Source: Escherichia coli (GTDB lineage: Bacteria > Pseudomonadota > Gammaproteobacteria > Enterobacterales > Enterobacteriaceae). From it: DNA of 64,000 nucleotides. Each line of letters starts with the position of its first letter. The stretch's first letter is position 1. The translations under genes and the position numbers were made by a program. Positions 523 to 45,670 of this stretch are shown here, in pieces. The notes under the pieces were generated by a model. That model had not been told where the DNA came from, ran no database searches, and saw only the letters and a program-made list of their open reading frames with translations. The DNA lies in NCBI RefSeq assembly GCF_044324875.1, contig NZ_CP172185.1. One strand, 5' to 3'.

Positions 523-2064
<1,542 letters not shown>

Positions 2065-2149
2065 CCTTAAAGAAGCGTACTTTGCAGTGCTCACACAGAT
2101 TGTCTGATAGAAAGTGAAAAGCAAGGCGTCTTGCGAAGCAGACTGATAC

Positions 2150-2225
2150 GTCCCCTTCGTCTAGAGGCCCAGGACACCGCCCTTTCACGGCGGTAACAGG
2201 GGTTCGAATCCCCTAGGGGACGCCA
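2150..2225 (+). tRNA. gltW: tRNA-Glu in the 16S-23S spacer
   Basis: GTCCCCTTCGTCTAGAGGCCCAGGACACCGCCCTTTCACGGCGGTAACAGGGGTTCGAATCCCCTAGGGGACGCCA, 76 nt with 3' CCA. Confidence 0.95.
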
Positions 2226-2418
2226 CTTGCTGGTTTGTGAGTGAAAGTCGCCGACCTCAATATCTCAAAACAGACTGTTAAGTCTTGTTTGAGATATTTG
2301 CTCTTTAAAAATCTGGATCAAGCTGAAAATTGAAACACTGAACAACGAAAGTTGTTCGTGAGTCTCTCAAATTTTCGCAACACGATGATGAATCGAAAGA
2401 AACATCTTCGGGTTGTGA

Positions 2419-5323
<2,905 letters not shown>

Positions 5324-5421
5324 ACAACGCCGAAGATGTTTTGGCGGATGAGAGAAAGATTTTCAGCCTGATACAGATTAAATCGACAGGTCATAACGAG
5401 ACGTGTTGATAAAACAGAATT

Positions 5422-5541
5422 TGCCTGGCGGCCGTAGCGCGGTGGTCCCACCTGACCCCATGCCGAACTCAGAAGTGAAACGCCGTAGCGCCGATGGTAG
5501 TGTGGGGTCTCCCCATGCGAGAGTAGGGAACTGCCAGGCAT
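5422..5541 (+). rRNA. rrfG: 5S ribosomal RNA
   Basis: TGCCTGGCGGCCGTAGCGCGGTGG ... GGGAACTGCCAGGCAT, 120 nt. Confidence 0.95.
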
Positions 5542-12898: not shown

Positions 12899-13104
12899 AA
12901 CTAACCTCGGGATGAGTAAGGAGACTTATCGGCAACGACGCCGGTATGTTTCTAATATGTTACATATTATCGGGGACATTGTTCCAGACAACAATCTGTT
13001 TTATTCAATAGGTATGATAGTCGCAGGCTTTGGTACGAAATCATGGCGAACCGCGCGCACTTCGGGTAATCTGCGCGCTTCGCGCAGCGCTGGTGGAGAA
13101 AAGC

Positions 13105-14189: not shown

Positions 14190-14879
14190 TTACTCACTCT
14201 CTGCCGGTAATACTGGCATCCAGTCAATCGGCGTCTCGCCACGTTGTTCCAGCCACTGATTTGCCTGCACAAAATGGTTACAGCCAAAGAATCCACGATG
14301 CGCAGAAAGCGGCGACGGATGCGGTGCTTTCAGTACATGATGGCGTTGCTTATCTATAATCGCCCCTTTCTTTTGCGCATGTGATCCCCATAACAAAAAC
14401 ACCACACCTTCGCGGTGCTGGTTAATCAGGCTGATGACTTTATCTGTAAACGTCTCCCAGCCGAGGCTGGCGTGGGAATGCGCCTGACCTGCGCGAACCG
14501 TCAAGACGGTATTGAGCAGCAGAACGCCCTGACGCGCCCAGCTTTCAAGATAACCATGATTAGGGCGGGTGAAGCCGGGAATAGTATTTTCCAGCTCTTT
14601 ATACATATTCAGCAGTGACGGCGGTGTCGCAATGCCGGGGCGAACGGAAAATGCCAGACCATGCGCCTGTCCCGGTCCGTGATAAGGATCCTGACCGAGG
14701 ATCACCACTTTAACGTCACCCAACTCTGTAAAGCGGAAGGCGTTAAAGACATCTTTTTGTGGTGGATAGATAGTGACGCCGGACTGCCGCTCGCTGGCGA
14801 CGGTCTGAAGGGTATTAAGAAAATAGGGTTGCTGCTTCTCTTCTGCCAGCACATCATGCCAGGTTAATTCGTTAGCCAT
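14190..14879 (-). CDS. ung: Uracil-DNA glycosylase, 229 aa
   Basis: [14 protein letters not shown]...; GQDPYH motif. Confidence 0.95.
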
Positions 14880-15009
14880 CTCGCTCTCCTGCGAATCTTC
14901 AATCCGCCTAGCTTAACTGCTTCTTTCTACAGAACAAAATCATGCTCATTTTATAGACAAAAAGACATGCAAAAAAATGTAAATTGGTAAAATTTCACAC
15001 CTGCATAAG

Positions 15010-15023
15010 TTGATGTAAAACAA
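15010..15023 (+). promoter_or_regulatory. FNR-type binding site (distal) in the grcA promoter
   Basis: TTGATGTAAAACAA, a variant of TTGAT-N4-ATCAA. Confidence 0.6.
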
Positions 15024-15062
15024 TAAAACCCATTTGTGACCACACTCGATATGTGTTTTTTA

Positions 15063-15076
15063 TTGATTTAAATCAA
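15063..15076 (+). promoter_or_regulatory. FNR consensus site (proximal) in the grcA promoter
   Basis: Perfect TTGATTTAAATCAA. Confidence 0.75.
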
Positions 15077-15182
15077 AGAATCAAGGGTGATTGAGGAGTA
15101 TATATACACTCAAGCAACAATGGTTTTACCAATTGGCCGCGACAGGCTGAACAAATCAATAATTTTGCCGGGGAGGCATCAC

Positions 15183-15566
15183 ATGATTACAGGTATCCAG
15201 ATTACTAAAGCCGCTAATGACGATCTGCTGAACTCTTTCTGGCTGCTGGACAGCGAAAAAGGCGAAGCGCGTTGCATCGTTGCGAAAGCAGGTTTTGCAG
15301 AAGACGAAGTGGTTGCAGTAAGCAAACTGGGTGACATTGAGTACCGTGAAGTTCCAGTAGAAGTGAAACCAGAAGTTCGCGTTGAAGGTGGTCAACACCT
15401 GAACGTTAACGTTCTGCGTCGTGAAACTCTGGAAGATGCAGTTAAGCATCCGGAAAAATATCCGCAGCTGACCATCCGTGTATCCGGTTATGCAGTTCGC
15501 TTTAACTCTCTGACTCCGGAACAGCAGCGCGACGTTATCGCTCGTACCTTTACTGAAAGCCTGTAA
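15183..15566 (+). CDS. grcA: Autonomous glycyl-radical cofactor, 127 aa
   Basis: Start at [12 protein letters not shown]; C-terminal RVSGYAV glycyl-radical motif; ORF-track N-terminal extension judged spurious. Confidence 0.9.
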
Positions 15567-15621
15567 GGCTTAAGTAGCAAGTTACTAAGCGGAAGAGGGC
15601 GACTTCTTCCGCTTTTTTTCG

Positions 15622-16209
15622 TTAATAGAAAATGCGTACCGCGCAATAGACCAGCAACAGGGCAAGCACGATATTTAACTGGCGACCATACTGGCGAAAC
15701 AATCGCTGAAACAGATGCCCCGCCAGCGCCCAGCACACATTGCCAAACGTCCCAATCATCGCCAGCAAAACGCTGACGCCAACTACCCAGCTTAGCGCCT
15801 GCGTTTGCGGCAGGACAAACGTCGACAGTGCCGTAACGCCATACAAAATGATTTTGACGTTCACAAACTGCAAAGCAAAGCTGGCCCAAAAGCTGATTGG
15901 TTTTGCCTGAAGTCCGTCTTCCTTTGTTGGACTGGTAGCGATTTTCCACGCCAGCCAGACAATGTATGCCGCTCCTGCCCAACTCAACAGATGCACTGCT
16001 GCCGGGTCGATAACAGCCAGTGAAAACGAAATTCCCGCACACAGCAACATGACGATTAAAAATCCCAGACTCATCCCTGCCAGCACGCGGGTACTCTGAC
16101 GAAATCCGTGCGATGTGGCTGAGCTAAGGGCGAGAATATTGTTCGGTCCTGGCGTCATGGCGGTAATCAGGGTGTAAGTCCAAAAAGCACTTAAAAGGGT
16201 CGGTGTCAC
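15622..16209 (-). CDS. eamB: Cysteine/O-acetylserine exporter (LysE/RhtB family), 195 aa
   Basis: Hydrophobic 195-aa ORF; position matches yfiK. Confidence 0.85.
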   Translation of the reverse strand: MTPTLLSAFWTYTLITAMTPGPNNILALSSATSHGFRQSTRVLAGMSLGFLIVMLLCAGISFSLAVIDPAAVHLLSWAGAAYIVWLAWKIATSPTKEDGLQAKPISFWASFALQFVNVKIILYGVTALSTFVLPQTQALSWVVGVSVLLAMIGTFGNVCWALAGHLFQRLFRQYGRQLNIVLALLLVYCAVRIFY

Positions 16210-22702: not shown

Positions 22703-23658
22703 TGAAGCAACTTTGGTTTGCCATGTCATTAGTGACAGGTAGCCTGTTATTCTCTGCTAACGCCTCGGCCACTCCCGCGTCCGGGGCGTTATTACAGCAG
22801 ATGAACCTGGCCAGTCAGTCACTGAATTACGAGCTGTCATTCATCAGCATCAATAAACAGGGTGTTGAGTCTCTGCGTTATCGACATGCACGCCTCGATA
22901 ACCGTCCTCTTGCACAATTGTTGCAAATGGATGGCCCGCGCCGGGAAGTGGTACAGCGCGGCAATGAAATCAGCTATTTTGAACCGGGACTTGAACCGTT
23001 CACGCTTAATGGCGATTACATTGTTGATTCTCTACCATCGCTCATCTATACCGATTTCAAACGCCTTTCTCCTTACTACGACTTTATCTCCGTCGGGCGC
23101 ACGCGTATTGCTGATCGTCTTTGCGAAGTCATTCGTGTGGTTGCCCGAGATGGTACACGCTACAGCTACATCGTGTGGATGGACACCGAATCGAAATTAC
23201 CGATGCGGGTTGATCTCCTTGATCGCGATGGTGAAACGCTGGAACAATTTCGCGTGATTGCTTTTAATGTCAATCAGGATATCAGCAGCAGTATGCAGAC
23301 GTTGGCGAAGGCAAATTTGCCGCCGTTGCTTTCTGTTCCTGTAGGTGAAAAAGCTAAATTCAGCTGGACGCCAACCTGGTTGCCACAGGGTTTTAGCGAA
23401 GTTTCCAGTAGTCGACGTCCGCTACCGACGATGGACAACATGCCTATCGAATCACGTCTCTATTCCGACGGATTATTCAGCTTTTCGGTAAACGTTAACC
23501 GCGCTACGCCATCGAGCACCGATCAGATGTTGCGCACCGGACGCAGAACCGTCAGTACAAGCGTACGTGATAACGCCGAAATCACCATTGTCGGTGAACT
23601 GCCGCCGCAAACGGCGAAACGCATTGCCGAGAATATTAAGTTCGGGGCAGCGCAATGA
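22702..23658 (+). CDS. rseB: Sigma-E regulatory protein RseB, 318 aa
   Basis: Signal peptide; start overlaps the rseA stop (ATGA). Confidence 0.9.
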   Translation: MKQLWFAMSLVTGSLLFSANASATPASGALLQQMNLASQSLNYELSFISINKQGVESLRYRHARLDNRPLAQLLQMDGPRREVVQRGNEISYFEPGLEPFTLNGDYIVDSLPSLIYTDFKRLSPYYDFISVGRTRIADRLCEVIRVVARDGTRYSYIVWMDTESKLPMRVDLLDRDGETLEQFRVIAFNVNQDISSSMQTLAKANLPPLLSVPVGEKAKFSWTPTWLPQGFSEVSSSRRPLPTMDNMPIESRLYSDGLFSFSVNVNRATPSSTDQMLRTGRRTVSTSVRDNAEITIVGELPPQTAKRIAENIKFGAAQ

Positions 23659-24134
23659 TCAAAGAGTGGGCTACCGTCATCTCCTGGGAAAACGGGCAGG
23701 CGCTGGTTAGTTGTGATGTTAAAGCCTCATGCAGCAGCTGCGCTTCACGCGCCGGTTGCGGTAGCCGCGTGTTGAATAAACTTGGCCCGCAAACCACGCA
23801 TACCATTGTCGTACCCTGTGATGAACCGTTAGTGCCGGGGCAAAAAGTGGAATTGGGGATCGCCGAAGGCAGCCTGCTTAGCTCCGCATTACTGGTTTAT
23901 ATGTCGCCGTTGGTGGGACTATTCCTCATCGCTTCACTATTTCAGCTACTCTTTGCTTCAGATATTGCAGCATTATGCGGTGCGATTCTCGGTGGCGTTG
24001 GTGGATTCCTGATTGCACGTGGCGGCTCTCGAAAGTTTGCTGCCCGGTCTGAATGGCAACCGATCATCTTAAGCGTGGCATTGCCGCCTGGCCTTGTGCG
24101 ATTTGAAACATCTTCGGAAGACGCGAGCCAGTGA
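23655..24134 (+). CDS. rseC: RseC, 159 aa
   Basis: Overlaps rseB stop; hydrophobic C-terminal half. Confidence 0.85.
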   Translation: MIKEWATVISWENGQALVSCDVKASCSSCASRAGCGSRVLNKLGPQTTHTIVVPCDEPLVPGQKVELGIAEGSLLSSALLVYMSPLVGLFLIASLFQLLFASDIAALCGAILGGVGGFLIARGGSRKFAARSEWQPIILSVALPPGLVRFETSSEDASQ

Positions 24135-24331
24135 TTTCACTGGCTTTGTTGCATTTTGCATAACAAATGCGAGGACGTTTCCAGATACCACAATCCATAC
24201 GGTATGAACATTTCCTCGCCTCAATGTTGTAGTGTAGAATGCGGCGTTTCTATTAATACAGACGTTAAGCTCAGAACAGCGACTTCTAAAAGCCTGGTTA
24301 ACCGGGCATTAAGGCACAATAATCATACTTT

Positions 24332-26131
<1,800 letters not shown>

Positions 26132-27166: not shown

Positions 27167-27363
27167 ATTATTTATGAGATAAATCTCCCGTGGCTAACGA
27201 CATCCCCCGTCGTTGTGTATAGAATATTCCCCCGAAGTTTAAGGTTGGCACCTCCAGGTTGCCACGGCACACGAAACAGCGTTGGTCCCCATATACCGGT
27301 AAACTGAAACTGCAGCGAAGCAGTTAGCAGAACCATGTATATCAGGTCTGTTTCGTGTGCTGA

Positions 27364-28976
<1,613 letters not shown>

Positions 28977-30839: not shown

Positions 30840-30864
30840 AAAAATACCGTTCTCTTTATAAAGT

Positions 30865-30906
30865 AAAACCCCCGAACTGGTAAGGAACGGGGGTTTTACT
30901 TTTTAA
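30865..30906 (+). terminator. Rho-independent terminator after acpS
   Basis: AAAACCCCCGAACTGGTAAGGAACGGGGGTTTTACTTTTT. Confidence 0.8.
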
Positions 30907-31258
30907 CTTTAATTTTGTGCAGCACGCACCCTCAACAAGAGCGATTATGGATCAGGGCGGTTATCTTTTACAAGCAACTTGCAATCTTTAGCATAAAAAC
31001 TCGAGCCTTTACGAAGAAAACAATATTGATGGAAAGATTAACGTGACCGCCAATTCGGAAGTACATTAAAATTGGCTTCGTTATTGGCGATTTTGCTGTG
31101 CTTTATACCATGCCACAGAATTCCCCCATTGAAACGAGTGGTGTCGTCAAAGCTCTGGTGTGGAGTGCAGCATGCACCCTCAATAACTCGCACGTTCAGT
31201 TTTGGGGAGATGTAAGGGCTAATCTGAACGGCTGCATTCCTTGTTTAAGGAAAAACGA

Positions 31259-40114: not shown

Positions 40115-40298
40115 CAGTGGCTCATTCACCGACTTATGTCAGCCCCTTCGGGACGTGCTACATAAAATTCGAATGACGCACAACAAGGTGCCTGCCGTCC
40201 AACTTCTGATATCAGCGTAGCTATATCAACCATCGGGCGAAACGTCGAGTTAGGCACCGCCTTATTCCATAACAAAGCCGGGTAATTCCCGGCTTTGT
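40115..40298 (+). ncRNA. glmY: Small RNA GlmY
   Basis: Starts AGTGGCTCATTCACCGACTTATGTCAGCC as recalled for GlmY; ends at terminator AAAGCCGGGTAATTCCCGGCTTTGTTG; about 184 nt. Confidence 0.85.
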
Positions 40299-45645: not shown

Positions 45646-45670
45646 AATTGATGTATCTCAAATGCATCTT
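45646..45670. promoter_or_regulatory. NsrR operator in the hmp promoter
   Basis: AATTGATGTATCTCAAATGCATCTT is the reverse complement of an AAGATGCATTTGAGATACATCAATT-type NsrR site. Confidence 0.7.

Follow-up and report, generated by a model that had tools for sequence, protein, structure and literature searches.

The grcA gene of Escherichia coli, also named yfiD, stands divergently to ung, and the gap between the two genes carries two dyads of the FNR type, one perfect and one imperfect. The locus raises the question of whether both dyads are operators of grcA, what the weaker one contributes to the control of the gene, and whether its weakness and its distance from the stronger one form part of a design. 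The original prediction, made from the letters of the DNA, had placed a perfect site at 15063-15076 and a second site at 15010-15023, with centres about 53 bp apart, upstream of a glycyl-radical cofactor gene. The sites were analysed here in the context of the window, that is, the whole 64-kb stretch of E. coli DNA, to which all coordinates refer unless they are given for K-12.

Two FNR-type dyads and the grcA promoter

Both sites are present in the sequence as predicted, the centre of site II lying at 15016.5 and that of site I at 15069.5, so that the distance of 53 bp corresponds to about 5.0 helical turns and places both sites on one face of the helix. The identity of the downstream gene was likewise borne out, its product matching the NCBIfam model TIGR04365 with 233.9 bits (cut-off 170) in agreement with the RefSeq annotation. 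Both sites are located inside the 303-bp ung-grcA gap, the features of which, together with the flanking genes, are as follows.

14190..14879, minus strand: ung, the divergent neighbour (open reading frame and annotation)
15010..15023, no strand: FNR site II, TTGATGTAAAACAA, one mismatch, at -93.5; read as the lower-scoring, downregulating site
15024..15062, no strand: inter-site spacer of 39 bp, its length held (38-39 bp) and its sequence free
15063..15076, no strand: FNR site I, TTGATTTAAATCAA, a perfect dyad; read as the class II activating site at -40.5
15099..15104, plus strand: probable -10 hexamer TATATA (-11 to -6), 0.89 conserved, its position inferred from the start site
15110, plus strand: implied transcription start, derived from published coordinates, with a possible error of 1-2 nt
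15118..15134, no strand: PdhR-like operator CAATGGTtttACCAATT, near +17, differing from the pdh operator AATTGGTaagACCAATT at two positions
15170..15176, plus strand: Shine-Dalgarno sequence GGGGAGG, from the sequence, 0.82 conserved
15183..15566, plus strand: grcA (yfiD) coding sequence, 127 aa, autonomous glycyl radical cofactor (TIGR04365 and RefSeq annotation)
15587..15614, plus strand: intrinsic terminator 3' of grcA, a 12-pair stem followed by a T run

Site I agrees with the dyad TTGAT-N4-ATCAA at all 10 specified positions and is the sole exact TTGATNNNNATCAA in the 64-kb window, where 0.09 copies are expected from shuffled sequences (at least one exact copy occurred in 8 of 100 shuffles). 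Site II agrees at 9 of the 10 positions, deviating by T to A at 15020 in its right half, and is one of seven matches in the window with at most one mismatch, against 2.23 expected. It had been described in the prediction as half-degenerate, which is apt in that the right half is the degenerate one, but the deviation amounts to a single dyad mismatch and the term needs care.

For a graded measure of site strength, a symmetrised FNR position weight matrix was constructed from 61 ChIP-peak sites in the available part of Table S6 of Myers et al. 2013 (PMC3688515), with yfiD's own two sites excluded to guard against circularity. Site I scored 21.39 bits (maximum 21.95) and ranked first among 63,987 positions, while site II scored 16.09 bits and ranked third, with P of about 1.6e-6 per position; the chance of finding a site as good as site II within +/-100 bp of site I is about 3e-4. 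Sites I and II are not chance occurrences. Sub-threshold matrix scores at both sites, named in the prediction as grounds for rejecting it, were not obtained, as each of the two scores above threshold. The second rank is held by TTGATGTATCTCAA at 45648-45661 (17.0 bits), 27 bp upstream of the start of hmp, and this sequence matches the glyA/hmp site in Table S6, where it is not placed under a ChIP-seq peak (PMC3688515). The top three FNR matrix matches in the window, two at grcA and one at hmp, are thus all already in the literature. The hmp gene itself is on the minus strand with its ATG at about 45621, and TTGATGTATCTCAA faces glyA (45943 onward).

A 19-nt inverted repeat (15010-15028 / 15058-15076, 89%) was considered as a separate element and set aside, as it consists mostly of the two palindromes of the same family extended by A/T-rich inner flanks, which are only moderately conserved.

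The transcription start was derived by mapping the U00096.2 coordinates 2714579 (site I) and 2714524-2714555 (the ArcA site given as -10/+22) onto the window. The implied start, 2714545, equals window position 15110, and relative to it site I is centred at -40.5 and site II at -93.5. A T as the first transcribed nucleotide, as implied here, is unusual. A consensus scan found no complete sigma-70 -35/-10 promoter in 14800-15700. The lack of a recognisable -35 fits an activator-dependent class II promoter, because FNR site I overlaps the -35 position, and the region shows the features of class II FNR promoters in having a site near -41.5 and a -10 together with no good -35. As far as the evidence goes, the sites exert no control over ung.

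The 73-nt grcA leader matched no Rfam family of riboswitches or other structured RNAs, and its folding is no better than that of shuffled sequences (z = -0.84). On the other side of the gap, about 47 bp adjoining the ung start codon (14880-14926) are nearly invariant from Escherichia to Citrobacter; this block is presumably the ung leader or promoter.

Elsewhere in the window, Rfam matches were obtained for the following elements, all of which are known E. coli features.

523-5539: complete rRNA operon (16S, tRNA, 23S, 5S, with StyR-44 in the spacer)
23619-24450: AsrC, antisense to rseC
27234-27448: rncO leader
30860-30936: ohsC antitoxin sRNA
40116-40263: GlmY

By coordinate transfer, a K-12 FNR peak (2716583) and an ArcA peak (2716648) fall in the trxC-yfiF intergenic region at about 12950-13070; an ArcA box of 18.9 bits is published for K-12 at 2716706, and no strong FNR matrix site was found in this interval.

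Identity with the yfiD promoter of K-12 and its occupancy by FNR

Comparison with the annotated yfiD promoter, which had been proposed as a check, showed that both 14-mers are base-for-base the same as in K-12 MG1655; they are identical also in E. albertii and Citrobacter. The ung-grcA intergenic regions of the window and K-12 MG1655 share 97% identity and all differences lie outside the two 14-mers: six substitutions in the inter-site spacer, seven in 14953-14967, one in 15002, two in the stretch from site I to the -10, and the loss of one base pair in the leader. None of them touches any recognised element of the grcA promoter. Relative to K-12 the window thus carries a strain-042-type allele that differs only outside these elements, with the same gene, 14-mers, 53-bp spacing, -10, PdhR-like box and Shine-Dalgarno sequence; 1 kb around the sites is 100% identical to strain 042. 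Of 5,426 complete E. coli genomes, 5,425 contain the 1-kb stretch, with the annotation ung, grcA and eamB, and identity of at least 99% over 14700-15700 was obtained in only 12 of 5,431 E. coli records, indicating a rare intergenic allele. The differences from K-12 are clustered, with seven in 15 bp upstream (14953-14967) and six in the 39-bp spacer, densities well above what the overall 97% identity of the intergenic alignment implies.

The K-12 promoter with its sites FNR I and FNR II is reportedly to be credited to Green et al. 1998 and Marshall et al. 2001. The correspondence of these names with the sequences of the window can be traced through the primers of a later study (PMC10208419 and its supplement). 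There, the wild-type yfiD fragment begins with ...gttgatgtaaaaca (primer m095); primer m097 carries ttTatgtaaaaAaa, in which the key G and C of FNR II are replaced, to give the promoter yfiD-m; and oligonucleotide m098 is a 78-bp fragment that starts past FNR II and keeps ttgatttaaatcaa. Because the primer sequences carry them, the published names FNR I and FNR II denote exactly these 14-mers, and the sites of the window are the published FNR I (-40.5) and FNR II (-93.5) of the yfiD promoter.

Occupancy of the promoter by FNR in vivo was taken from Myers et al. 2013 (PMC3688515), and these data, like the expression data considered below, are those of K-12, from which the strain of the window differs at six spacer positions. 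In the available part of Table S6, TTGATTTAAATCAA is listed for yfiD/ung at 2714579 with a PatSer score of 17.25 (ln p -16.63), the top score in part 1 of 2 of that table, and site II, given in reverse complement as TTGTTTTACATCAA, at 2714632 with a score of 13.87 (ln p -12.33). The two entries are 53 bp apart, both pass the threshold of -10.75, and both are placed under an FNR ChIP-seq peak. The centre of the peak (2714605-2714607) lies between sites I and II, and the peak was called by all four peak callers and also in an earlier ChIP-chip study (PMC3688515). In the main table yfiD is assigned to Category 1, direct activation by FNR, with the site at -40.5 (PMC3688515). A weak matrix value is given for the yfiD peak in Table S5 (-5.75), which conflicts with that in the available part of Table S6 (-16.63). 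The dual control by FNR stated in the prediction is therefore known, from Table S6, the ChIP-seq data and the literature on the sites at -40.5 and -93.5.

Conservation of the spacing and the regulators beside FNR

A scan for GrcA in one genome per species provided 80 loci from the Enterobacterales and the Pasteurellaceae. The 300-420 bp upstream of each grcA were scored with the FNR matrix, and scores were returned for all 65 Enterobacterales loci. A strong primary FNR site is present in each of the 65, and a second site of at least 11 bits is found exactly 53 bp upstream of it in 82% and at 52 bp in another 9%, i.e. at 52-53 bp in 91% of the loci, every other offset accounting for at most 2%. 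With genera assigned to families by the established taxonomy, the layout is present in the Enterobacteriaceae, the Hafniaceae (Hafnia, Edwardsiella), the Yersiniaceae (Yersinia, Serratia, Rahnella), the Pectobacteriaceae (Pectobacterium, Dickeya, Brenneria) and some Erwiniaceae; it is missing from three Pantoea, Erwinia persicina and Plesiomonas. In every pair the weaker site is the distal one, which retains a degenerate right half reading AACAA in the Enterobacteriaceae and the Pectobacteriaceae and AACAT in the Yersiniaceae and the Hafniaceae. In an alignment of 52 Enterobacterales sequences, mean identity to the window is 0.92 at site II and 0.93 at site I, falling to 0.49 in the spacer and to 0.39 in the DNA preceding site II; 87% of the sequences share the dyad-breaking A at 15020. 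This phylogenetic footprint argues for selection on the inter-site distance and on a weak distal affinity.

Two other regulators are given for yfiD beside FNR(+/-), namely ArcA(+) and PdhR(-), and the latter has been reported to repress the gene. The pdh operator AATTGGTaagACCAATT is centred at +19, and the box CAATGGTtttACCAATT near +17 of grcA is the only sequence in the window that matches it with at most two mismatches. Scored against the dyad AATTGGT-N3-ACCAATT, 15118-15134 agrees at 12 of 14 positions, the best match of the window, the count at three or fewer mismatches being not above chance. With a conservation of 0.88 in the 52-sequence alignment, CAATGGTtttACCAATT is the best-conserved block outside the FNR sites, and judging from the sequence the +17 box is likely a PdhR operator. 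A perfect 11-nt inverted partner of this box, AATTGGTAAAA, was noticed 131 bp upstream at 14982-14992; this upstream PdhR half-site is conserved only within Escherichia.

The sources on ArcA differ in both position and sign. Park 2013 (PMC3798270) gives a predicted ArcA site at -10/+22 (2714524-2714555) with negative sign, and the ArcA ChIP centres and the predicted box of that study map to the grcA core promoter at about 15085-15130. The same paper sums up earlier work as activation of yfiD by ArcA through disruption of FNR binding (PMC3798270), and a negative core-promoter site conflicts with this older account of activation by displacement of FNR from the distal site.

The latter account lends some interest to a reading in which a second factor, for example ArcA-P, binds a block of about 23 bp, TAAGTTGATGTAAAACAATAAAA, and competes there with FNR, the 'defect' at 15020 serving the site of that factor. 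Conservation does extend 3-5 bp past the 14-mer of site II, and the retention of A15020 would be accounted for. Against this, the published ArcA peaks and box are situated at the core promoter, away from site II, and the half-site drifts further to AACAT in the Yersiniaceae and the Hafniaceae, as simple weakening predicts; by eye, no direct repeat of the ArcA type could be convincingly made out over site II. Such a second factor appears unlikely, and would in any case be compatible with two FNR operators.

The divergent arrangement invites the view that site II is a chance near-match or an element of the ung promoter with no role at grcA, as 137 bp separate it from the ung start, a distance over which a divergent promoter could be served, and one-mismatch dyads are not rare in the window. 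The matrix score of site II speaks against this view, and so do the surveyed loci. In nearly all of them ung stands divergently next to grcA. Measured to the ung start, site II lies anywhere between 112 and 300 bp away, and site I is 110 to 160 bp from the grcA ATG; the pair itself, where present, is always spaced by 52-53 bp. Site II belongs with site I, because their spacing is fixed while the distance to ung varies. Since mutation of site II also raises grcA promoter activity (PMC10208419), a site without a role at grcA is highly improbable.

In the Pasteurellaceae, two FNR-like sites 42-44 bp apart are located about 85-140 bp upstream of grcA (L045, L048, L052, L053, L055, L060, L066 and L073), and the pair sits upstream of a conserved promoter, TTGAAA-N17-TGnTAAAAT, of the extended -10 type and close to consensus. 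By our own count the centre of the proximal site is near -48.5, which is not a class II position. Upstream of grcA in Pasteurella bettyae (L058), no FNR site of at least 10 bits was found.

Action of the two sites and related promoters

The published work on yfiD agrees that FNR bound at the proximal site activates the promoter (PMC3688515) and that FNR bound upstream suppresses this activation, reportedly without involvement of alphaCTD (Lee and Busby 2012); the downregulation occurs even with the activating site occupied. When FNR II is mutated (yfiD-m) or deleted (yfiD-P1), the resulting anaerobic promoters are stronger than yfiD-WT, and the activity of yfiD-WT is higher under microaerobic than under fully anaerobic conditions (PMC10208419). 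A shift from anaerobic conditions to 10 uM oxygen raises yfiD 5- to 12-fold at the levels of transcript and protein. For the mechanistic studies themselves (Green 1998, Marshall 2001, Wyborn 2002, Barnard 2003), the account given here follows their titles and later papers. The original prediction, in which the second site 'modulates activation', was right but vague, the published effect being downregulation in full anaerobiosis with a microaerobic peak.

The two sites are almost certainly the FNR operators of the grcA promoter, site I acting as a class II activator site and site II providing anaerobic damping. This reading is based on the sequence, the matrix strength of the sites, their identity with those of K-12, the occupancy in K-12, the site II mutants and the conservation of the layout, and nothing in the data contradicts it. 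In the absence of oxygen, dimeric [4Fe-4S] FNR would bind the perfect dyad at 15063-15076 and, placed at -40.5 over the -35 position, would recruit RNA polymerase in the manner of class II activation. Under full anaerobiosis, with active FNR abundant, site II (-93.5, one half degenerate) would also be filled and transcription would drop. The lower affinity of site II would set the order of filling, the site with the degenerate half being occupied after site I as active FNR builds up. Expression of grcA would then be highest at low but non-zero oxygen, the promoter behaving as a band-pass filter for oxygen, and inputs of pyruvate and redox state would be added by PdhR, probably at the +17 box, and by ArcA. 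In the literature GrcA figures as a spare glycyl-radical domain by which oxygen-cleaved pyruvate formate-lyase is rescued, and a microaerobic peak suits a protein with this repair function. The contact between the distal and proximal FNR dimers that produces the damping is given in the literature as unknown.

Promoters of related organisation help to place this behaviour. The melR-based semi-synthetic tandem-FNR promoters (Barnard, Green and Busby 2003) resemble grcA in combining a class II site with an upstream FNR site. The upstream site is reported to be strongly repressive only at about -85 to -95, a range that includes the -93.5 site of grcA, by a mechanism whose details the authors call unknown. 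These promoters were engineered with consensus sites, whereas the distal site of grcA is naturally weakened. Among promoters with tandem CRP sites, CC(-n)CC(-61.5) shows that an upstream activator of the same family can repress in a position-dependent manner, as at yfiD (Lee and Busby 2012). Repression by tandem CRP at -122.5 proceeds via an AR1-alphaCTD contact, while that at yfiD reportedly does without alphaCTD (Lee and Busby 2012).

The CRP promoters also provide the main argument for taking site II as a co-activating site of class I type acting in synergy with site I, as an upstream CRP site at -93.5 raises activity (Lee and Busby 2012) and the two sites of grcA lie on the same helix face. 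For FNR the effect is the opposite: repression results from an upstream site at -85 to -95, upstream FNR suppresses activation at yfiD itself, and promoters without site II are stronger (PMC10208419), which leaves very little probability for synergy.

A promoter that reads mainly cAMP rather than oxygen, its dyads being bound by CRP or by both CRP and FNR, is scarcely credible: CRP and FNR do belong to the same family with related dyads, and a CRP scan alongside that for FNR had been proposed with the prediction, but neither site is within two mismatches of the CRP core TGTGAN6TCACA, the window contains no more CRP-like matches than chance would give (22 against 24.3 expected), and both sites carry the FNR-type TTGAT half-site, score above the FNR threshold (ranks 1 and 3) and are occupied by FNR in K-12 ChIP-seq.

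Among natural promoters, E. coli ndh is said to be repressed by FNR at two upstream sites, at about -50.5 and -94.5 (Meng et al. 1997). Like grcA, it binds FNR dimers in tandem ahead of the start, the distal dimer near -94. It differs in that its proximal site is off the class II position and the net effect is repression, whereas the proximal site of grcA activates. The 42-44 bp tandem of the Pasteurellaceae recalls this FNR-repressed layout more than that of grcA. An ndh site, TTGATTAACATCAA, is present in the available part of Table S6 of Myers et al. (PMC3688515).

The tandem-FNR promoter of grcA is already known, having been dissected since 1998 and being in use as an engineering part. The analysis therefore brings nothing new on E. 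coli, and its value is that of a positive control for the scan, in which the operators and their spacing were placed from the sequence alone. The small additions concern the wider distribution, namely the order-wide occurrence of two sites 53 bp apart, the distal one weak, and the 42-44 bp layout of the Pasteurellaceae; in the literature searched, which did not extend to the primary yfiD papers, no description of either was found. In evolutionary rather than mechanistic terms, it is possible, though put forward only tentatively, that the microaerobic-peak design is ancient, consisting of a strong class II site and a deliberately weakened site exactly five turns upstream. The design may have been selected in at least five families of the Enterobacterales and lost in Pantoea, some Erwinia and Plesiomonas, with a different layout, perhaps for damping instead of activation of grcA by FNR/HlyX, in the Pasteurellaceae. 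The comparative data add modest support to the view that the weakness of the distal site and its position are a functional design and not an accident.
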